Source: Kiritimatiellia bacterium
GTDB taxonomy: Bacteria > Verrucomicrobiota > Kiritimatiellia > CAIKKV01
Direction of reading: 5' to 3'
Assembly: GCA_046484345.1 (NCBI GenBank)
Contig: JAWOJA010000007.1
Span: 11,206 to 75,205, forward strand
Length of the DNA stretch: 64,000 bases
This document shows positions 2,396 through 45,332 of this stretch, one piece after another. The position numbers and the translations under genes were made by a program. Below the pieces are notes generated by a model. It was not told the origin of the DNA. It ran no database searches and was given only the letters and a program-made list of their open reading frames with translations. How positions within the stretch are numbered: the stretch's first letter is position 1; each line of letters begins with the position of its first letter.

Positions 2396-3733
2396 ATGTA
2401 CAAGGATAAATCGTTGTTTCGCCAGGTCGGTTTTTCGCTGATTTGCGCCGGTTTGCTGACGGCGGGTTGCAACCGCCAGAGTGAGACGACCAAGACCGAA
2501 GAGGCGGCCAAGCCCGCCGCCGCTCCCGAAGTCAAGGCCAGTGCCGCTGTCGATCCCGCCAAGGTCATGATCCAAATCGATGACAAGAAGATCACCGAAG
2601 GAGAGCTGACCAAGCAGGCCGCCGAACAGTACGAGCAGGTGGCCGCCATGGTCCCCCCGGAGCAGTCCGAGACCTACCGCAACCAAATGCGCGTCCAGGC
2701 CGCCCAGTCGTTCATCATCACCACGCTGCTGGAAAACGAAGCCACCAAGCGCAACATCACGGTCAATGAGGCCGATATCGAAAAGGCCATCGCCGATATC
2801 ACCAAGCGTCTCCCCGCGGATATGAACTTGGAGAAGGTGCTCGAAAAGGAGGGCATGACCCCCGAGACCTTCCGTGACCGTTTGAAAAAGGATCTTCGCA
2901 TCAAGAAGTTGTTCGATGTGGAGATGGATAAGGCCGGTCCGATTGCGGACAAGGAAGTCGCCGATTTCTACGCCAAACAGAAATCCGCCTTCGAAGTGCC
3001 CGAGCAGGTGACCGCCCGCCACATCCTCATCAAGGTGGATGAAAAGGACGATGAGGCCGCGAAGGCTGCCAAGAAGGGCAAGATCGAGGATCTGAAGAAG
3101 AAGATCGAAGCCGGCGCCGATTTCGCGACCCTCGCCAAGGAAAATTCCGACTGCCCTTCCGCCAAAGAGGGCGGCTCGCTGCCCAAGTTCGGCCGCGGCC
3201 AGATGGTGCCCGCGTTCGAGGAAGCCGCTTTCACGCAGGCCACGAATGTGGTGGGCCCGATTGTCGAGACCCAGTTTGGCTATCACCTCGTCCAGGTGAT
3301 CGAGAAGGACGCCGGGTCCACGCGCTCCCTCGAGGACGTCAAGGAGCAGATTCTCGACTACCTCAAAATGATGAAGAGCCGCACGATCATCCCGCCGTTC
3401 ATCGACAGCCTGCGCGCCAATGCCAAGGTGACCATCGACCCTGAGCTGGATGAAGAAATCCAGGCCCAGAAGCTGGCTGACGAAGCCCGTCAAGCTGCCT
3501 CCATGCAGGGCGACGAGGGCGACGAGGGTGAAGAGGGCGAAGAGCAGGAAGAAGAAGTTCAGGCTCCGGCCGTTGAACCGGCCCCGGAAGCCCCGGAAGC
3601 CCCGGAAGCCCCGGCGGCCCCGGAAGCCCCGGCGGCCCCGGAAGCCCCGGCGGCTCCGGAAGCCCCGGCGGCTCCGGAAGCCCCGGCGGCTCCGGCTCCG
3701 GCCGTCGAGGCCGTCCCGCCAGCGGCGAAATAA
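2396..3733 (+). CDS. Parvulin-type peptidyl-prolyl isomerase lipoprotein (PrsA/SurA-like) with acidic Pro/Ala-rich repeat tail
   Basis: RBS AAGGAG lies 7 nt before the ATG at 2396. Lipobox LLTAGC. Rotamase domain (ARHILIKV...FGYHLVQV). C-terminal (PEAPAA)n repeat. Confidence 0.75.
   Translation: MYKDKSLFRQVGFSLICAGLLTAGCNRQSETTKTEEAAKPAAAPEVKASAAVDPAKVMIQIDDKKITEGELTKQAAEQYEQVAAMVPPEQSETYRNQMRVQAAQSFIITTLLENEATKRNITVNEADIEKAIADITKRLPADMNLEKVLEKEGMTPETFRDRLKKDLRIKKLFDVEMDKAGPIADKEVADFYAKQKSAFEVPEQVTARHILIKVDEKDDEAAKAAKKGKIEDLKKKIEAGADFATLAKENSDCPSAKEGGSLPKFGRGQMVPAFEEAAFTQATNVVGPIVETQFGYHLVQVIEKDAGSTRSLEDVKEQILDYLKMMKSRTIIPPFIDSLRANAKVTIDPELDEEIQAQKLADEARQAASMQGDEGDEGEEGEEQEEEVQAPAVEPAPEAPEAPEAPAAPEAPAAPEAPAAPEAPAAPEAPAAPAPAVEAVPPAAK
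3581..3700 (+). repeat. In-frame tandem repeat (9/18-nt units gccccggaa / gccccggcggccccggaa) encoding PEAPEAPAAPEAPAA within the PPIase tail
   Basis: About 7 near-identical tandem copies, read directly from the sequence. Confidence 0.8.
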
Positions 3734-3736
3734 GGC

Positions 3737-4399
3737 GTGCCGCGACGGTTGTTTATCTTCGATCTGGACGGCACGCTGGTTGACTCCGCCGCCGATTTGG
3801 CGACAGCTGTCAACCTGACCCGGGCCGCGTTTGGGCTCGGTCCGATATCCGCGACTACCGTGACCGGTTACGTGGGCGATGGCATCCGCATGCTCATGGT
3901 TCGTGCGCTCCAAGACTGTCCTGACGCGGATATCGAACGGGCCGTGAATTTCCAGAAGGCCTATTATCTGGCCCATCTGTGCGATCAAACACGGTCCTAC
4001 GATGGGGTCAGGGAAGGCCTGGCCCATCTGCGCGTCCGCGGACATGTTCTGGCCGTAGCCACCAACAAGCCGGTGGATGTCACCGAAACGTTGCTGGCCG
4101 ATCTGAAGATGCGTCACCTTTTCGATGCAGTCTATGGGGGCGGCAGCGTGCCGGAGCTCAAACCGCATCCCGCCATGCTGGAAGCCGCCATGACCGGACT
4201 GGGATTCGGCCGACCGGACAGCTGGATGGTGGGGGATAACCGGACGGACTTGGAATCGGCGCGCCGCGCCGGGATCCGCTCGGTCCTGATGCGCTACGGC
4301 ATGGGCCGTTCGGACCCGGAAAAACCGGATTTGGCGTTCGACACGTTTTCAGAATTCGTGACACATTTTGAACCGGACTTCCGGGGGGATCAGAGATGA
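3737..4399 (+). CDS. HAD-superfamily hydrolase, phosphoglycolate phosphatase-like
   Basis: Motif I FDLDGTLVDS and the remaining HAD motifs are present. GTG start 3 nt after the PPIase stop. Confidence 0.7.
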   Translation: MPRRLFIFDLDGTLVDSAADLATAVNLTRAAFGLGPISATTVTGYVGDGIRMLMVRALQDCPDADIERAVNFQKAYYLAHLCDQTRSYDGVREGLAHLRVRGHVLAVATNKPVDVTETLLADLKMRHLFDAVYGGGSVPELKPHPAMLEAAMTGLGFGRPDSWMVGDNRTDLESARRAGIRSVLMRYGMGRSDPEKPDLAFDTFSEFVTHFEPDFRGDQR

Positions 4400-5499
4400 A
4401 AAAGCCATCGACCGTATATTTTGCATCCGTCGGCGTTGCCCGCCCCGAAGGCTCGGCAACCCTGCCCGCGAAGCTTCAGCGGATGCTGGCGCAATTCGAT
4501 CTCAAGGAGCTCAGCCAGGGCCAGGCCGTGCCCATCAAGATGCACCTGGGTGGAAACCTGGGCTATTCCACCATTCATCCTTTGCTGGTGCGCATGGTGG
4601 TCAATGCCGTCAAGGCCGCCGGCGGCAAACCGTTCGTGGTGGAAGCCGGCTTCGGCACCGTCGCCGCCGCGGCGGACCGCGGCTATACGGCCGAAACCCT
4701 CGGATGCCCCATCGTCGCGGCCGGCGGCCCGTATGACGCATACGTGGTGGAGCGCGAGGTCGGTTTCCGCCAGCTCGACAAGCTCCGCATTTACGGCACG
4801 ATCTGGGATGCCCCCTGCCTGATCAACCTCTCCCACGTCAAGGGCCATGGCGCCTGCGGTTACGGCGGCGCCTGCAAGAACATTGCCATGGGCTGTGTCG
4901 ATGCGAAAACGCGCGTCAAGATTCACGCCCTCGAGGGCGGGATCGATTGGGACAAGAACGCCTGCCTATTTTGCGGCCGTTGCGTGAAGGCGTGCGACAG
5001 CGACGCCATCACGCTCGACAAGAAGAAGAAATCCCTCGATATCTTTTTCCACAATTGCCGCTTCTGCCGCCACTGCGTGGCCGCCTGTCCCACGAAGGCG
5101 CTCGTCATGCGCGAGGAAAGCGGGTTCCGCTATTTCCAGGAAGGCATGGCGTTGACCACGAAAACGGTGCTGGATTCCTTCAAGCCGGGCCGCGTGCTGC
5201 ACATCAACGTGCTCACTCAGATCACTATGTTCTGCGATTGCTGGGGCATCACCACGCCCAGCCTGGTGCCGGACATCGGGATCATGGGGTCCACGGACAT
5301 GGTGGCGCTGGAAACGGCCTGCCTGAACGCCATCAAGACGGAGAACCTGATTCCCGGCTCCATCATCGGCAAGCGGAAAATGAGCAAGGGCTCGCATCTT
5401 TTTGAGCGGATTCACGGCAAGGATCCCTGGCTGCAGGTCAAGGCCCTGGAGGCGCACGGCGTCGGCTCCCGGAAGCACGTGGTCAAGGAAGTGGGCTGA
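4396..5499 (+). CDS. DUF362-domain protein with two 4Fe-4S ferredoxin motifs
   Basis: CxxCxxCxxxCP motifs (CLFCGRCVKACD, CRFCRHCVAACP). ATGA overlap with the upstream gene. Confidence 0.6.
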   Translation: MKKPSTVYFASVGVARPEGSATLPAKLQRMLAQFDLKELSQGQAVPIKMHLGGNLGYSTIHPLLVRMVVNAVKAAGGKPFVVEAGFGTVAAAADRGYTAETLGCPIVAAGGPYDAYVVEREVGFRQLDKLRIYGTIWDAPCLINLSHVKGHGACGYGGACKNIAMGCVDAKTRVKIHALEGGIDWDKNACLFCGRCVKACDSDAITLDKKKKSLDIFFHNCRFCRHCVAACPTKALVMREESGFRYFQEGMALTTKTVLDSFKPGRVLHINVLTQITMFCDCWGITTPSLVPDIGIMGSTDMVALETACLNAIKTENLIPGSIIGKRKMSKGSHLFERIHGKDPWLQVKALEAHGVGSRKHVVKEVG

Positions 5500-34078: not shown

Positions 34079-39514
<5,436 letters not shown>

Positions 39515-39607
39515 TCCAAGCCTTGCGCGAAGCATGGAGGGCGGCGCGCTGTCGCCGCCGCCGCATGGGATTGTCTCGGTTGATGGTTTCCGATACGCCC
39601 GCGAAGG

Positions 39608-39653
39608 TGGTGGGCAGTACAGGAATCGAACCTGTAACATCCAGCGTGTAAAG
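39608..39653 (-). pseudogene. 46-nt fragment of tRNA-Val (anticodon loop through CCA), inverted relative to the intact tRNA-Val at 44497; candidate att-site remnant
   Basis: The reverse complement of 39608-39653 equals ctttacacgctggatgttacaggttcgattcctgtactgcccacca, identical to the 3' 46 nt of the tRNA at 44497-44572. Similarity ends abruptly at the anticodon-stem/loop junction. Confidence 0.8.
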
Positions 39654-40051
39654 GTATTCAAGCTGTTTTCGTAAGTGCCACAATAAGAAGTTGTTGTGGC
39701 TATAAGCCCTTGAAAACACAATTTTTAAGGCGATCCAGATCGATCCGCCACGATAACAGGCGATCAAGTGAGAAACCAAGTGTCATGCGGTGTGTCATGC
39801 ACTTTGTTAAAAAGCATTTTATAGGGACAGGAAATGCGCTCTTATGATTGAGATTCTCCTGATATATCCACTGGACCTTAACAGGCGAAATCCTACCCTT
39901 ATCGCTTTACTCTATAATATTACTTTAAAGGATGTTGACTGAATGCCCTGTTGAGTCCAACATTGAAGAAGCTCGTTTTTGAGAAATTTCTCTTTGTCAA
40001 ACAAGACCCGCAAAGTCCAGAGGGGAACGAGACACCGAAAGGAGGCTACAC

Positions 40052-40273
40052 ATGGGCGACTGGTCAGACTACTTCGAGCAATTCCCCGAGGAGAATCCCG
40101 GCAACTACGATAAGAACGGCCAATTCGACCCGCACGGGGTTCTCCGGAAAGAGCGGGCAACCCAGCAACTTGCCCAAAGGCGTTTGACCGAAGTGCAACT
40201 GGCGAACGCAACGGCAACCCAACCGGTGACGCAAGTTGACACAGGAATATCCCAACACCCGCGTCCACGGTAG
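40052..40273 (+). CDS. Small (73 aa) hydrophilic hypothetical protein
   Basis: Strong RBS AAAGGAGG 7 nt before the ATG. Its stop codon lies inside REP-like hairpin copy 1. Confidence 0.45.
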   Translation: MGDWSDYFEQFPEENPGNYDKNGQFDPHGVLRKERATQQLAQRRLTEVQLANATATQPVTQVDTGISQHPRPR

Positions 40274-40301
40274 CCTCGCAAGCTCGGCACCGTGACGCGG
40301 G
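40258..40301 (+). repeat. REP-like imperfect palindromic repeat, copy 1 (core cacggtagcctcgcaagctcggcaccgtg)
   Basis: A 13-14 bp stem with one bulge (cccgcgtccacggt / accgtgacgcggg). Contains a GTAG tetranucleotide. The 29-nt core is repeated at 41699-41727. Confidence 0.6.
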
Positions 40302-40320
40302 ACGTTCGAATATAATAAGA

Positions 40321-41064
40321 ATGATAAAAACCATGACAGACATCCGTAAGTTTTGTGGATGGCTAATGCTGGTCTTGGTGATCGGCGAATTTGTATTCTT
40401 TGCCAACAGTTGGCTTCGATATTGCCCGCCAACCGAAGCACTCCAATTTGCTTTCAGCGGCGCGTGGTTTAGGGACAAATTCCCGTATGGCGGTGCAGGT
40501 TTCGCCTTGGATAAGCCGACGATAGGAAAATTATTCTTATGGACCTCAGTTTTGACCTGCCTCGCCTGCACAATAATATTGCTGCTACATACTGTCGTAG
40601 AACGCAATCACCGCGTGGGGTGGCGGTGCGCGAAAGCAAGTGCGGCTTTTCTTATTGCTTTTGTCTTGGTTGAGTTCCTCGTCCCAACCTTTTTTCTTGT
40701 TCAGTATGTTTTTTCCATGGGTGTGACGATTCGTCGGTTCCTGGGGCTTTGTTTGTGTTGTGGTTTTTGGTTCTCTCTTCCGTCAATCATATTCTGGATC
40801 AGGAAGACGGGGCCATCGCTGATAGATTGGAAACGTAATCCTCTTGTTTTAGCGCTCGCCTGCTCTATTGTTATTCCTACTTACTATTTGATCCTCATAC
40901 TGCAACCATACGAATGTCGCCATTGGGGAACAGTAAACACAATGTTCTTACTTGCATGGCTAATGCTGGTTGCTCCAATACTCTGCGTCATGTGGCTAAA
41001 CTCACGGGTCAAGACTAATGTCACCGAACCAGCGGTTGCGACTAACCGCAAGAGCCGCAATTGA
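40321..41064 (+). CDS. Hypothetical polytopic membrane protein (about 6 TM), low-GC
   Basis: Six predicted hydrophobic helices. No recognisable catalytic motif. ATGA overlap with the next ORF. Confidence 0.45.
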   Translation: MIKTMTDIRKFCGWLMLVLVIGEFVFFANSWLRYCPPTEALQFAFSGAWFRDKFPYGGAGFALDKPTIGKLFLWTSVLTCLACTIILLLHTVVERNHRVGWRCAKASAAFLIAFVLVEFLVPTFFLVQYVFSMGVTIRRFLGLCLCCGFWFSLPSIIFWIRKTGPSLIDWKRNPLVLALACSIVIPTYYLILILQPYECRHWGTVNTMFLLAWLMLVAPILCVMWLNSRVKTNVTEPAVATNRKSRN

Positions 41065-41681
41065 ACCTAGTCATTCAGGCAGTGGCCGCACAGGCCAGTC
41101 GTTCGGCAGGCAAACATCACATGACAAAACATCGCATCGTATTCATTGGCGCATGGATAGTGCTCATATTAGCTCTTTTCGCGTTCCCGGGGTTCGAGGC
41201 ACGAGGTATCGCGAGTGGTCTTGTCATTGGCTGGTGGCCTTTCCTGTTCCTCGGACCCCTGGTCGCAAATTCACAGAACGGGGAGGGAATCGCATATCTC
41301 ATTGCCTTCATAACGAGCGGGACAATAGTTGGATTTTGTGCATGGGTTATGGACAGAGCTGAATTGACGAAAAAGGCCTGGCTGGTGTTACTGTTGTCGA
41401 TCATAGGAGGAGCCGCCGTTATCTACGTCTTGACCGATTACAGTTTTGATGATTGGAAAAGATCTCCCGCTGTGTCGGCTGCAATGGAGTCACCAGAATT
41501 GAGCTACGAACCCACAGGGGGGGAGTTTAACGAGTCAATTGTGATACCGCAATTGCTGGCCGGTGGCATGTGGGGTCTATATGTGGCTACAACCTTGAGT
41601 TTCTTTTATTCAATAATCCTCTTGAGGATACTTCGCTTGAAGCAGATGCAGGCGGCGGCTGACTCACAACATGAAACATGA
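41061..41681 (+). CDS. Hypothetical polytopic membrane protein (about 5 TM), low-GC; alternative start at 41121
   Basis: Hydrophobic helices. Translationally coupled to the upstream membrane protein. REP-like copy 2 lies 12 nt after its stop. Confidence 0.45.
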   Translation: MNLVIQAVAAQASRSAGKHHMTKHRIVFIGAWIVLILALFAFPGFEARGIASGLVIGWWPFLFLGPLVANSQNGEGIAYLIAFITSGTIVGFCAWVMDRAELTKKAWLVLLLSIIGGAAVIYVLTDYSFDDWKRSPAVSAAMESPELSYEPTGGEFNESIVIPQLLAGGMWGLYVATTLSFFYSIILLRILRLKQMQAAADSQHET

Positions 41682-41692
41682 AGCCGAACACT

Positions 41693-41730
41693 GCGGCGCA
41701 CGGTAGCCTCGCAAGCTCGGCGCCGTGCCT
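41693..41730 (+). repeat. REP-like palindromic repeat, copy 2 (core cacggtagcctcgcaagctcggcgccgtg)
   Basis: 28/29 identity with the copy-1 core; the flanks are unrelated. Confidence 0.6.
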
Positions 41731-41943
41731 CGAAGAGGCATTGGGGTCACGTCTATAAATTCTAATTTCATAAATTAGGGACAAATAGCCTTCTCATGCG
41801 GAGCATCCGCTTTCCGAAGGCTGAGTAGCTCCCGTTGTCGTTGAACGGGGCAACCGAGTACCAGAGATCCGACTCCTTCGTCGTCCGGATCACGGTGCCC
41901 GGCACGGACTGCACTTCCTTCATCAACGTGTCCGATTCTCGCT

Positions 41944-42945
41944 TCACGTCGATTGCACGGTTCCCGGACGCTCGTACGGCGCATTGTAACTGACGATGGC
42001 TTGTGCCCATTCATTCAGTTCCATGCATTGTTCGCGGGTGACCGGCTTGCGCTGCCTTTGGTAAGGGAATGGGGCGATCATCAGCAGTCGTCCTGCGGCG
42101 CAGGCATCGAAATAGCGTCCAATGGGTTTGTATTGGGGCGCGAACCCATTGGCGAGCAGCACTATGAGTGGTCGGCCGGCTTCCAGCGCCGCACGGGCAA
42201 TGGCTTTCTCTCCAGGGCTGATGCAGGGAGAAACCAGAACGGCGCCGTGTTCCGCTTCGCAGAGCAGTTCCCGCCGCCTGGCGTCCAGTTCTTCCGCAGA
42301 GACGCGCCGCGAGACTTGGATCTGGCATTTCAAAGGGTGCTGCAGGAGAAAACGGTTGCCGATGGCGGCAGAGGTTCTGCCGGCGGCGATTTCCAGATGG
42401 GAGACAACGGTAAAGAGGCTCGGGTTCGCCCTTTTCACGGCCAGACGCCGGGGATTGTCTGCAATATAGGCCGCCATGGCCTTCAACTGGCCACGGCGCA
42501 GGAGGATGCTATCCTGGAAACCGGGCTGCCATAACCCGGCGGCAGGGGCTGCCGCCCGAACTGGACTGGAGGCTGCCGCCGGGTCCGGGCGCAGGAGCAA
42601 CCCCCTGCTCCTGCATTCCTTCTCGCTCACGCTCTTGAACGCCTTCACCATGTGGCCCATCGGCCGCACCAGGCGTTCTTTGACCCAGAGAATGCCATGA
42701 AAGTGGTCGGGCATCACCACATGCTCGCAGGCCTCCACTCCGGGATACACGGACGAACTCCGCCGCCAGACGTCGCGGACGATCTCCCCCATGGTCGAGA
42801 GTGCCATGGCGGCCTGGCCGCCGGGGCCGGCATGCAACGCGCCGAGGCAATTCCGCCGCTGTTCGGTGACTACCGTAATCATGTAGAAGCTGGGAGCGTA
42901 GTAGTCGTGCTCCCAGCAGCGCTGAAGCATTCCCGTGTTGCTCAT
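41944..42945 (-). CDS. REP-associated tyrosine transposase (RAYT)-like HuH/Y1 protein with a ~140-aa C-terminal DprA/SLOG-like extension
   Basis: N-terminal ~190 aa carries the RAYT hallmarks YY...ITVVT, HuH motif VVMPDHFHGILWV, and catalytic-Tyr motif YIADNPRRLAV (compare YIxxNPVRAGLV). The C-terminal region resembles the DprA Rossmann domain (VLVSP.ISPGEKAIARAALEAGRPLIVLL...LLMIAPFP). The second domain is tentative. Confidence 0.6.
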   Translation of the reverse strand: MSNTGMLQRCWEHDYYAPSFYMITVVTEQRRNCLGALHAGPGGQAAMALSTMGEIVRDVWRRSSSVYPGVEACEHVVMPDHFHGILWVKERLVRPMGHMVKAFKSVSEKECRSRGLLLRPDPAAASSPVRAAAPAAGLWQPGFQDSILLRRGQLKAMAAYIADNPRRLAVKRANPSLFTVVSHLEIAAGRTSAAIGNRFLLQHPLKCQIQVSRRVSAEELDARRRELLCEAEHGAVLVSPCISPGEKAIARAALEAGRPLIVLLANGFAPQYKPIGRYFDACAAGRLLMIAPFPYQRQRKPVTREQCMELNEWAQAIVSYNAPYERPGTVQST

Positions 42946-43066
42946 GCTCTGGTTCGCTATTCGCTATCCATCATTGAGATGGCCCTCCTACGCGCGGCGT
43001 CGAAACCGACTTGCGATTCGAAGGGCCCACCACCTTCGCGAAAACGCTGACCCGACGACCGGCGAA

Positions 43067-44496: not shown

Positions 44497-44572
44497 GGGC
44501 AGTTAGCTCAATTGGCAGAGCGCCAGCTTTACACGCTGGATGTTACAGGTTCGATTCCTGTACTGCCCACCA
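44497..44572 (+). tRNA. tRNA-Val (anticodon TAC)
   Basis: 76-nt cloverleaf: acceptor GGGCAGT/ACTGCCC, D-arm GCTC...GAGC, anticodon loop TTTACAC, T-arm ACAGGTTCGATTCCTGT, 3' CCA encoded. Confidence 0.9.
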
Positions 44573-44886
44573 TCATCTATCCTGTCCGCTATCCGCTATC
44601 CGCCGGGCAATCGATGTGAAACGGGAGCCGGATGCTAATTTTGGGAGTAGGGGCAGCCACAAAGCCATTTATCGAGTCACTTGGCTTATTTATTATTGTT
44701 AGGACTGATTTCAAGATTCGGTATCGTAACATCCGCAATGCCGGATTCCAGCATAAACGCATACATTCATACGCCTCATTTCCTTCGGCCGAAGGAGTCG
44801 TAAACCGATCAAATCCATAAACCCGTTTTACGATGACCATTTTCTCGGTATCAGTTTGTCGTTTGTCGGGACTTGACCCCTTTCGG

Positions 44887-44921
44887 AAAAAAGCCCGCAA
44901 AGAGGGTGCTTTGCGGGCTTT
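44887..44921 (-). terminator. Rho-independent terminator downstream of the XRE gene
   Basis: On the minus strand reads AAAGCCCGCAAAG-caccct-CTTTGCGGGCTTTTTT: a GC-rich stem followed by a U-run. Confidence 0.6.
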
Positions 44922-44939
44922 CAGGAATGGGAAAACGAA

Positions 44940-45194
44940 TCAACCGCGTTTCTTGCCGGCCTTGCCGGTGCCGATGAGCTTCAGCCCCTTCGTGGCATCG
45001 ATGCCGAGGGCTTCGCAGAAGCGGACATACTCCAGCACGTCCAGGCGGCGTTCTCCGGTTTCATTCTTGCTCACCCAGGAGGGCGGCATTTTGAGGGTCT
45101 TGGCCAAGGTCCGAAGCGTGATCTTCTGGGAGGTCCGCGCATTCCGCAACCAGGCGAGCAACTCGGCAAACTGCTTTATTTGTTTCGTTTTCAT
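44940..45194 (-). CDS. XRE-family helix-turn-helix transcriptional regulator (Cro/CI-like)
   Basis: An 84-aa HTH_XRE domain (LRTLAKTLKMPPSWVSKNETGERRL). Lies in an AT-rich segment between two tRNA genes. Confidence 0.7.
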   Translation of the reverse strand: MKTKQIKQFAELLAWLRNARTSQKITLRTLAKTLKMPPSWVSKNETGERRLDVLEYVRFCEALGIDATKGLKLIGTGKAGKKRG

Positions 45195-45208
45195 GCTGTA
45201 TAGAGTAC

Positions 45209-45221
45209 CTGTTTTGAACAG
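45209..45221. promoter_or_regulatory. Small inverted repeat CTGTT-ttg-AACAG 15 nt upstream of the XRE start; candidate autoregulatory operator
   Basis: Perfect 5-bp arms with a 3-nt spacer inside TACCTGTTTTGAACAGTA. Confidence 0.3.
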
Positions 45222-45332
45222 TAATACAATGCTGATATTTTAAGGTTTTTAGACCCCGGGATTCATGTTTTGCCCGATAAACAGGTTTGCTTTGATTTTG
45301 GCGGGGCCGGTTGGTAAGATGGGCTTTCTTTA

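Follow-up and report, generated by a model that had tools for sequence, protein, structure and literature searches.

A RAYT-like HuH-Y1 protein with a predicted DprA-like module, and palindromes inside its gene, in PVC bacteria and Bacteroidales

The gene and its two domains

The window analysed here is the whole 64,000-nt stretch of contig JAWOJA010000007.1 from a Kiritimatiellia bacterium. It contains a gene whose product is identical to GenBank MFO7534187.1 ('MAG: transposase [Kiritimatiellia bacterium]'). The current labels on proteins of this family are only 'transposase', 'RayT' or 'hypothetical'. The gene and its product have the following features:

41944-42945, minus strand: complete ORF, 333 aa plus stop, ATG start (ORF translation)
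42412-42945, minus strand: HuH/Y1 (RAYT/IS200-like) domain, residues 1-178
42694-42714, minus strand: HuH motif MPDHFHG, with H81 and H83 as predicted metal ligands (translation)
42532-42609, minus strand: variable, partly low-confidence loop holding the palindromes, residues 113-138 (alignment and AlphaFold)
42442-42468, minus strand: catalytic tyrosine motif YIADNPRRL, with Y160 and, at Y+4, N164 (translation)
41986-42405, minus strand: C-terminal minimal DprA-like (SLOG superfamily) Rossmann-type domain, residues 181-320
42205-42231, minus strand: near-invariant loop SPCISPGEK, comprising S239, P240, I242, S243, G245 and E246 (translation and conservation)

The ORF is one genuine gene encoding a two-domain protein. 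An AlphaFold model of the 333-aa product (mean pLDDT 87.4) consists of a HuH/Y1 domain (1 to ~178) and an alpha/beta domain (~181-320); together with the full-length homologues it bears out the two-part layout proposed in a first-pass annotation. The motifs named there are also where that annotation put them: YYAPSFYMITVVT at residues 15-27, VVMPDHFHGI at 76-85 and YIADNPRRL at 160-168. Values of dN/dS are 0.10-0.20 for each half (0.31-0.38 in the closest pair), indicating purifying selection on both.

The N-terminal half had been taken for a RAYT, and this stands. It has the HuH motif, the single tyrosine with a polar ligand at Y+4 and the IS200/RAYT fold that mark the HuH-Y1 superfamily. Among 127 family members there is no variation at M78, P79, H81, H83 or G84, and D80 is kept in 126, as is each of Y160, N164 and P165. 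The motif set DHFH / WQ / YIxDNP (the window protein has LWQ) fits class 2 in the motif table of PMC6006769, which gives YIxxNP as the class-2 tyrosine signature. The NCBIfam profile REP_Tyr_transpos (NF047646) matches the window protein with E=1e-12 and an alignment spanning 124 of its 146 positions, the score of 48 bits being under the 80-bit equivalog cut-off; the same search gave no IS200 match. A Pfam match to Y1_Tnp (PF01797) had been expected as well, and here the expectation failed: Pfam returned nothing for the window protein at E<=1, PF01797 included. Relatives score 17.8-24.5 bits against PF01797, one of them (L056) above the 23-bit cut-off. To judge from its sequence, then, this half is a class-2 (RAYT/TnpA_REP-like) HuH-Y1 enzyme with all predicted catalytic residues (H81, H83, Y160 and N164) intact. 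The loop at 113-138, which runs from helix 96-113 to strand 145-149, varies widely in length among homologues.

Sequence libraries gave nothing for the C-terminal half, and the domain was identified by structure comparison. Pfam (including PF02481, DNA_processg_A), NCBIfam and PADLOC contained no match, and PDB searches with the single sequence and with the family profile were empty. By Foldseek the best structural match is ShosA (6e-6), and the closest folds belong to the ssDNA-binding DprA/ShosA clade, not to ThsA-type or LOG-type SLOG. The family profile aligns weakly with that of DprA in hhalign (probability 13%, E=0.002), and its score against the strand-SGSLIT-helix-strand segment of DprA is 24.8 whereas the maximum in 150 shuffles was 18.5. 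In this register the SPCISPGEK loop pairs with the 'SGSLIT' loop of DprA; both are presumably the SLOG phosphate-binding loop, equivalent to the PGGxGTxxE loop of LOG. A different register, in which QVSRR / SPCISPGE / YKP matched DprA 'GSR / SGxAxGID / YP', was rejected because hhalign put SPGEK on the later SGSLIT loop. The predicted structure and the weak but non-random profile match point to a DprA-type SLOG Rossmann fold, in agreement with the DprA/SLOG-like region of the first-pass annotation.

Palindromes in and around the gene

A hairpin search found two palindromes inside the window gene, neither assigned to a strand:

42591-42614: palindrome A, GCAGGAGCA-N6-TGCTCCTGC, 9-bp perfect stem, encoding CRSRGLLL
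42533-42585: palindrome B, with core GGCGGCAG-GGG-CTGCCGCC at 42538-42556

Palindrome B has a duplicated left arm, which makes a longer hairpin, and a loop orientation opposite to that of A. Palindrome A is kept at the nucleotide level in 15 PVC orthologues; its codon position is fixed, and it hardly changes between orthologues that are 66-82% identical. Synonymous sites are constrained (top-codon frequency 0.96 in the hairpin versus 0.67 elsewhere), and the ssDNA fold has z = -4.1. Covariation of window-type hairpins gave 96.7% paired and three compensatory pairs, a result that 1 of 500 shuffles equalled, with the compensatory changes all coming from one sequence (L014). Neither palindrome has a further copy in the 64-kb window, a flanking copy or a GT[AG]N foot.

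The first-pass annotation had instead proposed as partners of the gene two REP-like hairpins outside it, next to low-GC cargo, and had missed the gene-associated palindromes, which lie within. The two hairpins (repeat D1, 40251-40299 and 41684-41732) and the low-GC stretch (39600-41800, GC 0.42-0.54 versus 0.62-0.70 around it) do exist. Both D1 hairpins, the only copies in the window, are on one side of the gene within this insert; two further copies turned up in a metagenome scan, on unrelated contigs (53-55% GC) without the gene, and an Rfam search with D1 gave no match. D1 was accordingly rejected as a partner: it belongs to the insert, which nothing indicates to be cargo. An inverted tRNA-Val fragment also adjoins the gene, and the region around 39600-43040 contains a 16-nt inverted repeat.

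RAYT genes are typically accompanied by palindromes with a GT[AG]G foot (the REPtron arrangement). Is anything similar found across the present family? The density of perfect hairpins is 0.96 per kb within family genes and 0.29 per kb outside them. A hairpin lies between the HuH and W motifs in 61 of 83 loci, none being present in the shortest loops; the number of copies per gene is 0-3, and loop position and sequence differ between lineages. About a dozen loci have identical copies just outside the ORF. In Bacteroidales relatives the equivalent hairpins have the canonical GT[AG]N REP foot, also flank the gene, and there are tandem duplications in which the foot is repeated along with the left arm. 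Such footed hairpins reach 0.341 per kb in the gene and the 150 bp on either side versus 0.025 per kb elsewhere. In the covariation analysis 97.9% of cells are paired and 5 of 8 pairs are compensatory, a level that none of 500 shuffles reached. Across the 9-kb loci of relatives, hairpins are concentrated at the gene, with few at a distance from it. The many dispersed intergenic REP/REPIN copies that serve as a criterion for RAYTs were found neither in the 64-kb window nor in these 9-kb loci. When flanks were compared with each other, shared inverted words of at least 10 nt were absent from 68 of 81 loci and only about 5 of 81 had clear flank-to-flank repeats; a 'no REPs' reading of this test was reversed by the hairpins found inside genes.

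Each lineage appears to have its own palindrome, either translated in frame as part of a surface loop of the HuH domain, or directly beside the gene, or both, and the family, large, chromosomal and low-copy, appears to behave like a REPtron. The palindromes are probably the enzyme's cognate sites or substrate. Alternatively, the hairpins may regulate the gene in cis, as DNA or mRNA structures acting in transcription attenuation, mRNA stability or autoregulatory binding, and the protein may act on other ssDNA, such as that of repair or recombination. The fixed, near-invariant and synonymously constrained palindrome A would fit this, since it points to long-term maintenance rather than recent insertion, as would the lack of other window-hairpin copies in 64 kb and the polA, mutS or mfd genes adjoining some relatives. 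It is harder to reconcile with hairpins whose copy number, loop position and sequence vary by lineage, with identical copies outside the ORF, or with the canonical REP feet and tandem foot/left-arm duplications in Bacteroidales; moreover, no recurrent partner family occurs among neighbour genes. We consider regulation unlikely as the main explanation.

Family distribution and genomic setting

A homologue search found 785 sequences, the best 120 of which are almost all full length. The C-terminal domain by itself matched 1165 cluster representatives (50% identity) and is C-terminal in all of the best 150; each of the 15 matches inspected shows HuH-Y1 motifs or is a truncated piece of a protein built in this way. 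Among the homologues inspected, the domain is known solely in the HuH-Y1 fusion. The fusion was surveyed, as the first-pass annotation had advised, and at least 581 species-representative genomes proved to encode it. The family that it founds, in PVC bacteria and Bacteroidales, is large and hitherto undescribed and constitutes a new subclass of RAYT characterised by the DprA-like module; a literature search for RAYT/HuH combined with DprA/SLOG found no description of the fusion.

The window has one copy of the gene and no dispersed repeats or dispersed k-mers. Second copies within a MAG are rare, and these paralogues and their flanks are divergent at the DNA level. Similarity to relatives ends at the ORF borders, without conserved element ends. 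IMG/VR, phage genomes and BFVD contained no relatives, and a plasmid collection merely two distant matches to the N-terminal half and no full-length copy. Prevotella relatives are in stable synteny with polA or mutS, and in some lineages polA, mutS or mfd adjoins the gene. These were considered as functional partners and rejected, since no family recurred when 105 distinct clusters of neighbours were surveyed with Pfam. The gene is chromosomal and low-copy, has no IS ends and is not currently mobile.

The first-pass annotation had suggested a mobile or defence-related function, and neither suggestion found support. For defence, one can picture an effector whose HuH nuclease is activated by the SLOG domain, either on sensing a nucleotide second messenger (as ThsA does) or in the capacity of an antitoxin module resembling ShosA. 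The SLOG superfamily does include ligand sensors, the antitoxin ShosA is the best structural match, and a few relatives have restriction-modification or Cas neighbours. That said, PADLOC is silent, no ShosT-like phosphoribosyltransferase, TIR or cyclase partner (or any other partner gene) is conserved, the surrounding genes serve housekeeping and glycan degradation, with synteny in Prevotella, and the nearest folds are those of the DprA/ShosA clade rather than the ThsA or LOG types. All this makes a defence or signalling role improbable.

Mobility would mean that the gene is an autonomous, still active insertion sequence of the IS200/IS605 type, or belongs to a mobile island, with the low-GC DNA as cargo. 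Motif (YIxxNP instead of Y...Q), copy number (one in the window, with old and divergent paralogues), the lack of conserved ends or an adjoining tnpB, the stable Prevotella synteny and the absence of full-length copies from the viral, phage, plasmid and BFVD collections largely refute this, and the hairpin of the insert recurs on unrelated contigs without the gene. What favours it is the 'transposase' label in the sources, the low-GC insert and tRNA-Val fragment beside the gene, and the repeats on both flanks in 5 of 81 loci; we rate it very improbable. Finally, that a sequencing or assembly frameshift fused separate genes for a RAYT and a small Rossmann protein, an idea whose sole support is the prior that canonical RAYTs are short, is refuted to near certainty by more than 100 independent full-length homologues carrying both halves (from NCBI, JGI, ENA and Logan), the 581 or more genomes with the fused gene, the constant placement of the C-terminal domain downstream of HuH-Y1 in the sequences inspected, a model pTM of 0.80 that suggests a single compact unit, and the purifying selection on both halves; of the two outcomes that the first-pass annotation named as fatal to its proposal, an unrelated C-terminal domain and such a frameshift, neither occurred.

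Proposed function and comparison with known systems

The two-domain architecture is solid. From it, and from the folds, residue conservation, selection, family distribution and palindrome covariation established above, we infer a function: the protein is probably a host-resident two-domain RAYT with a DprA-like module and its own palindromes, processing REP-like hairpins. Its substrate would be ssDNA exposed at replication or repair. Because all predicted catalytic residues are intact, cleavage of ssDNA at the hairpin foot is expected of domain 1, which would cut, and probably rejoin, at a specific foot via a 5'-phosphotyrosine intermediate. Domain 2 would be a stripped-down DprA-type SLOG Rossmann domain that retains a near-invariant phosphate-loop-like motif and dispenses with the SAM and winged-helix parts. 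The Rossmann domains of ShosA and DprA bind ssDNA (PMC11961720); extrapolating from these, domain 2 most likely holds the flanking ssDNA and/or drives oligomerisation, and it might recruit RecA. A dispersed REP population is not supported in the source genome, since the window palindromes are single and footless within 64 kb. A bolder version, which we put forward only tentatively, is that of a widespread and so far unrecognised host-resident RAYT class that couples hairpin-specific ssDNA cleavage/joining to a DprA-like ssDNA-binding or RecA-loading module and has its recognition palindromes in frame in its own gene.

For over ten years it has been asked what purpose RAYTs serve in their hosts, and this family could help with the answer. 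Its size is considerable, with 581 or more species and 1165 clusters (50% identity), and abundant Prevotella of gut and rumen are among its carriers. The joining of a RAYT core to a module whose relatives bind ssDNA, DprA being a RecA loader, hints at a link between REP-hairpin processing and ssDNA or recombination handling. If the coupling is real, it would amount to a new pathway for processing ssDNA or initiating recombination in PVC bacteria and Bacteroidales, with the dominant Prevotella of gut and rumen among the latter, and to the first mechanistic handle on the benefit of RAYTs to hosts. Material for experiments is at hand: a defined protein, putative cognate hairpins with covariation and a canonical foot, and natural alleles with no, one or several hairpins. 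The finding also fills an annotation gap, the C-terminal domain having no Pfam, NCBIfam or PADLOC model, and in-frame palindromes under nucleotide-level selection in a coding loop are a case of overlapping constraints.

How does the protein compare with known systems? It differs from IS200/IS605 TnpA (IS608, ISDra2) in having Y...NP rather than Y...Q, in not being multi-copy, in lacking left-/right-end structures and tnpB, and in not residing on mobile elements. Unlike ShosA, the DprA-like antitoxin of the ShosTA defence system (PDB 8ZVA, 9VZO), it has no ShosT partner and no SAM domain, and PADLOC does not recognise it. Compared with DprA/Smf (PDB 4LJK, 3UQZ, 3MAJ), the module is shorter (~140 aa versus ~200 aa, with nine strands in DprA), lacks the SAM and C-terminal winged-helix domains, does not match PF02481 and is fused to a predicted nuclease.

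Among the TnpA_Y1 subclasses of Quentin et al. (2018, PMC6006769), subclass 2.4 occurs in Bacteroidetes and its REPs can be 'double-foot'. As described there, its members have NH[IFV]H / YIxNNP, a mean length of 194 aa, no C-terminal domain and an insert between beta3 and alphaC; the fusion family has DH[FILV]H / Y[ILV]xDNP, 320-380 aa and an insert after the helix that follows the HuH strand. Among the 12 TnpA_Y1 subclasses, 2.4 or 2.5 would be the expected sister group of the fusion family. Subclasses 2.1.2 and 2.3 are, in that account, similarly low-copy and likewise combine a RAYT-like core with a conserved C-terminal domain. Their added domains differ (helix-turn-helix/DnaA_C, or an unrelated 2.3-specific one), their motifs are of the NH.H type and they are reported not to be REP-associated. 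The main text of that paper, including its section on domain organisation, mentions no DprA-like module. The architecture, which the first-pass annotation had called unusual, is therefore unusual in part: RAYT relatives with extra C-terminal domains (DnaA_C, HTH) are described in that source, and the novelty is the DprA-like module, not a two-domain RAYT as such.

The class-2 enzymes TnpA_REP/RAYT (E. coli, PDB 4ER8) lack the extra 140-aa DprA-like domain, and the NCBIfam match of the window protein stays below cut-off; unlike theirs, the window palindromes are intragenic only, footless and not dispersed within 64 kb. With TnpA_REP/RAYT the family nevertheless shares the REP_Tyr_transpos match, the YIxxNP and WQ motifs, a low-copy chromosomal location and gene-associated palindromes, which in Bacteroidales are GT[AG]N-footed.

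A single gene joining a HuH-Y1 half to a DprA-like domain

The ORF and the three motifs quoted for it in the first-pass annotation are all present on the minus strand:

41944-42945, minus strand: HuH-DprA ORF, ATG start, 333 aa
residues 15-27 of the product: motif YYAPSFYMITVVT
42694-42714: HuH motif MPDHFHG, from translation
42442-42468: Tyr motif YIADNPRRL, from translation

The product is identical to GenBank MFO7534187.1 ('MAG: transposase [Kiritimatiellia bacterium]'); family proteins are labeled only 'transposase', 'RayT' or 'hypothetical' in the databases. Among 5.8 billion proteins searched there were 785 matches; the best 120 mostly have 300-380 aa and are 52-82% identical over ~95% of the query. 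Relatives were found in at least 581 genomes (scanning one genome per species), their hosts being Kiritimatiellia, Lentisphaerae, Verrucomicrobia, one Planctomycetaceae and many Bacteroidales (Prevotella, Muribaculaceae); the last are ~40-43% identical to the window protein over residues 6-317. Computed separately for the N- and C-terminal halves, dN/dS is 0.10-0.20 for eight of the nine pairs; the closest pair has 0.31-0.38. Could the fusion have arisen from a frameshift, as the first-pass annotation had allowed? The full-length homologs, their spread over these genomes and the low dN/dS in both halves exclude this; the fusion is one gene, and that it is an artefact is barely conceivable.

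Sequence libraries recognize only the N-terminal half, and weakly: it scores 48 bits (E=1e-12) against NCBIfam REP_Tyr_transpos, below the cut-off of 80. A Pfam search with the window protein gave no match, and one relative reaches the Y1_Tnp threshold. No model in Pfam, NCBIfam or PADLOC covers the C-terminal domain. Because residues ~181-320 match the DprA clade, this domain is predicted to belong to the SLOG superfamily, with DprA/ShosA as the nearest clade, which bears out the DprA/SLOG assignment made from sequence alone. Profile-profile comparison with DprA sequences from the PDB aligned the family 'GAVLVSPCISPGEKAIARAALEAGRPLIVL' to DprA 'GVIVAEAKMRSGSLITCERAMEEGRDVFAI' with a score of 24.8 (E=0.002, probability only 13%), above all 150 column-shuffled controls (mean 12.0, sd 2.2, maximum 18.5). 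In this predicted DprA-type fold, a conserved loop occupies the place of the SLOG phosphate loop.

With the C-terminal domain alone as query, 1.84 billion cluster representatives yielded 1165 matches. The domain is C-terminal in every one of the best 150, and each of the 15 sequences inspected either has the HuH and Y motifs ahead of it or is a truncated piece of a protein so built; P0166, an atypical one, has the domain duplicated. Among the sequences inspected the DprA-like domain is confined to the HuH-Y1 fusion.

Invariant or nearly invariant residues in 127 members are M78, P79, D80, H81, H83, G84, Y160, N164, P165 and R167 in the HuH-Y1 half, whose catalytic set is intact in the window protein, and G196, N197, S239, P240, I242, S243, G245, E246, K273, P274 and R304 in the C-terminal domain. 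Two homologs (P0163, P0229) and a cluster are variants of 482-522 aa with very large inserts and MPNH.H instead of MPDH.H. Since one 90%-identity cluster of these has 693 members, the MPNH.H form is abundant in some sampled habitat.

Palindromes inside the gene

The gene contains palindromes missing from the first-pass annotation:

42591-42614: palindrome A, GCAGGAGCA-N6-TGCTCCTGC, encoding CRSRGLLL
42538-42556: core of palindrome B, lengthened to 42533-42585 through duplication of its left arm

Perfect hairpins number 0.96 per kb in family genes against 0.29 elsewhere in the loci and 0.30 over the whole window. At least one lies between the HuH and W motifs in 61 of 83 loci, and loci with the minimal HuH-W spacing of 37-40 residues have none there. 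Their sequence is lineage-specific and their palindromic symmetry is kept. The loops of A and B are oppositely oriented, and together the two give an ssDNA fold z of -4.1. Palindrome A is nearly invariant in nucleotides in 15 PVC orthologs and is 96.7% paired, with three compensatory pairs, all from one locus (L014); one of 500 shuffles scored as high. Its codons are under synonymous constraint, with a top-codon frequency of 0.96 versus 0.67 at other amino-acid-invariant columns; among such columns with four- to six-fold degeneracy, 0 of 28 are single-codon. Because A and B have no other copy in the 64 kb and neither has a foot, no dispersed REP population is evident in this genome.

Bacteroidales hairpins have a 5' GT[AG]N foot and often also a 3' [CT]TAC. 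Footed hairpins occur there at 0.341 per kb within the gene ± 150 bp versus 0.025 elsewhere, and about a dozen loci have a further copy of their hairpin immediately up- or downstream of the gene. Of 12 loci with polA-linked Prevotella orthologs, 11 have a footed hairpin after the polA stop. Across these orthologous hairpins pairing stands at 97.9%, and five of eight pairs show compensatory changes; none of 500 shuffles scored as high. The structured palindromes associated with the gene are under selection. That they are cis-regulatory structures and nothing more is unlikely, though worth keeping in mind.

Some of these Prevotella orthologs have the foot and left arm duplicated in tandem (L031, 3799-3884; L033, 3663-3760; L075, 3816-3861), for example as CCTGTAGACTGAGA repeated before a complete hairpin, and the left-arm duplication of palindrome B resembles theirs. 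Such duplications may have been left by repeated rounds of cutting and ligation at the foot. The variable loop (columns ~200-300 of the family alignment, A1) and the homolog P0224 contain peptide tandem repeats (GLLLPPNPSKG..., PPVAPPPASSGGARGSACAAA three times), probably derived from an amplified palindrome-bearing DNA unit.

The low-GC insert and other window features

34079-39514, plus strand: UvrA-like protein, unusually long at 1811 aa
39650-41900: low-GC insert
40052-41681, plus strand: three insert ORFs (73, 247, 206 aa)
40251-40299 and 41684-41732: 49-nt repeat folding as a hairpin, both copies in the insert
44497-44572, plus strand: tRNA-Val
44600-45300: second low-GC patch, between tRNA-Val and tRNA-Met
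44890-44921: perfect hairpin with a 13-bp stem, in the second patch
44940-45194, minus strand: small ORF in the second patch, which looks like an XRE-type helix-turn-helix protein
3580-3690: tandem array of 9- and 18-nt GC-rich units (CCGGGGCTTCCG...), from a k-mer scan

The two REP-like hairpins that the first-pass annotation had set beside the gene are real and fold, but they are not its partners, since they occur on contigs without it. Both lie just past the stops of plus-strand ORFs on the same side of the gene. The element also turns up on two metagenomic contigs, unrelated and with 53-55% GC (L087, 554-610; L088, 202-272), and these two encode neither the HuH-DprA protein nor the insert's proteins. 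The 49-nt repeat is part of the insert, not of the gene. The element is ~45-60 nt long, has the conserved core CACGGTAGCCTCGCAAGCTCGGC[AG]CCGTG and an outer stem that covaries among copies, and matches no Rfam family. The two larger insert ORFs gave nothing in Pfam and, from their hydrophobic sequence, look like membrane proteins; no relative of any of the three was present in the fetched loci.

The 3' 51 nt of tRNA-Val (44527-44577) are repeated inverted at 39603-39653, exactly where the insert starts. The tRNA 3' end and 8 further nt make up a perfect 16-nt inverted repeat (39600-39615 / 43025-43040), whose second copy lies in the 121 bp that separate the HuH-DprA and malic enzyme genes. Together these repeats bracket the tRNA fragment, the insert and the HuH-DprA gene, which suggests an old integration followed by inversion, or MAG misassembly. 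Beyond the insert, and convergent with the HuH-DprA gene, the UvrA-like gene encodes several ABC ATPase modules with UvrA_inter and UvrA_DNA-bind.

Chromosomal context, proposed function and known systems

Neighbor genes vary from lineage to lineage. In Prevotella the gene is directly downstream of polA in 14 loci (L027, L030-L033, L041, L045, L046, L050, L054, L058, L060, L065, L075) and divergent from mutS in seven (including L028, L037, L043, L051, L053); in Lentisphaeraceae (L021-L023) it comes after mfd, 22-120 bp away. Such an arrangement agrees with vertical inheritance of a chromosomal gene. The adjacency may be synteny only, because deduplicated neighbors show no recurrent partner family, and the independent cases are too few for a repair function to be read from the linkage.

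The first-pass annotation had offered a defence or mobile role. PADLOC gave no match to the gene and a Pfam survey of 105 distinct neighbor clusters gave no recurrent partner, which leaves the defence reading unsupported; that the protein is a signalling or defence effector is improbable. The mobile reading fares no better: the gene has one copy in the 64-kb window, where no dispersed repeat family was found, similarity to relatives ends at the ORF borders, and IMG/VR, phage genomes, plasmids and BFVD contain no full-length relative (the plasmid search gave two distant matches, both to the N-terminal half). Where a MAG has two copies, the paralogs are old and divergent in DNA sequence. An active IS is very improbable indeed.

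Two Bacteroidales loci, unlike most in the family, have the whole gene between direct repeats: L078 (3760-3922 / 4913-5070; at least 63 nt at 98% identity, ~150 nt of similarity judged by eye, hairpins inside) and L081 (72 nt, 3836-3907 / 4988-5059).

E. coli TnpA_REP nicks and rejoins REPs via a phosphotyrosine link. By analogy, the HuH-Y1 domain would nick and rejoin ssDNA at the gene's hairpins through such a link, while the DprA-like domain would bind adjoining ssDNA or mediate oligomerization and might contact RecA. The architecture is well supported; the function we infer. Our verdict is that the family forms a new subclass of RAYTs, marked by a DprA-like module and by REP-like palindromes inside the gene. 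Literature searches, whose coverage left out one key SLOG survey, found no description of a RAYT-DprA fusion.

In ShosA and DprA, ssDNA is bound by a Rossmann domain of nine strands (PMC11961720). Compared with DprA, the C-terminal domain is reduced to ~140 aa, without SAM or winged-helix parts. By its motifs DH[FILV]H / WQ / Y[ILV]xDNP, the family is class 2 (TnpA_REP-like) as Quentin et al. 2018 (PMC6006769) define it, and it exactly fits none of their 12 subclasses. Extra C-terminal domains described there for TnpA_Y1 members are DnaA_C, HTH and one specific to subclass 2.3; the word 'DprA' is absent from the main text, and its account of subclass domain organization lists no such domain. 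From subclass 2.4, as described there, the HuH-DprA family differs in motifs, insert position and extra domain.
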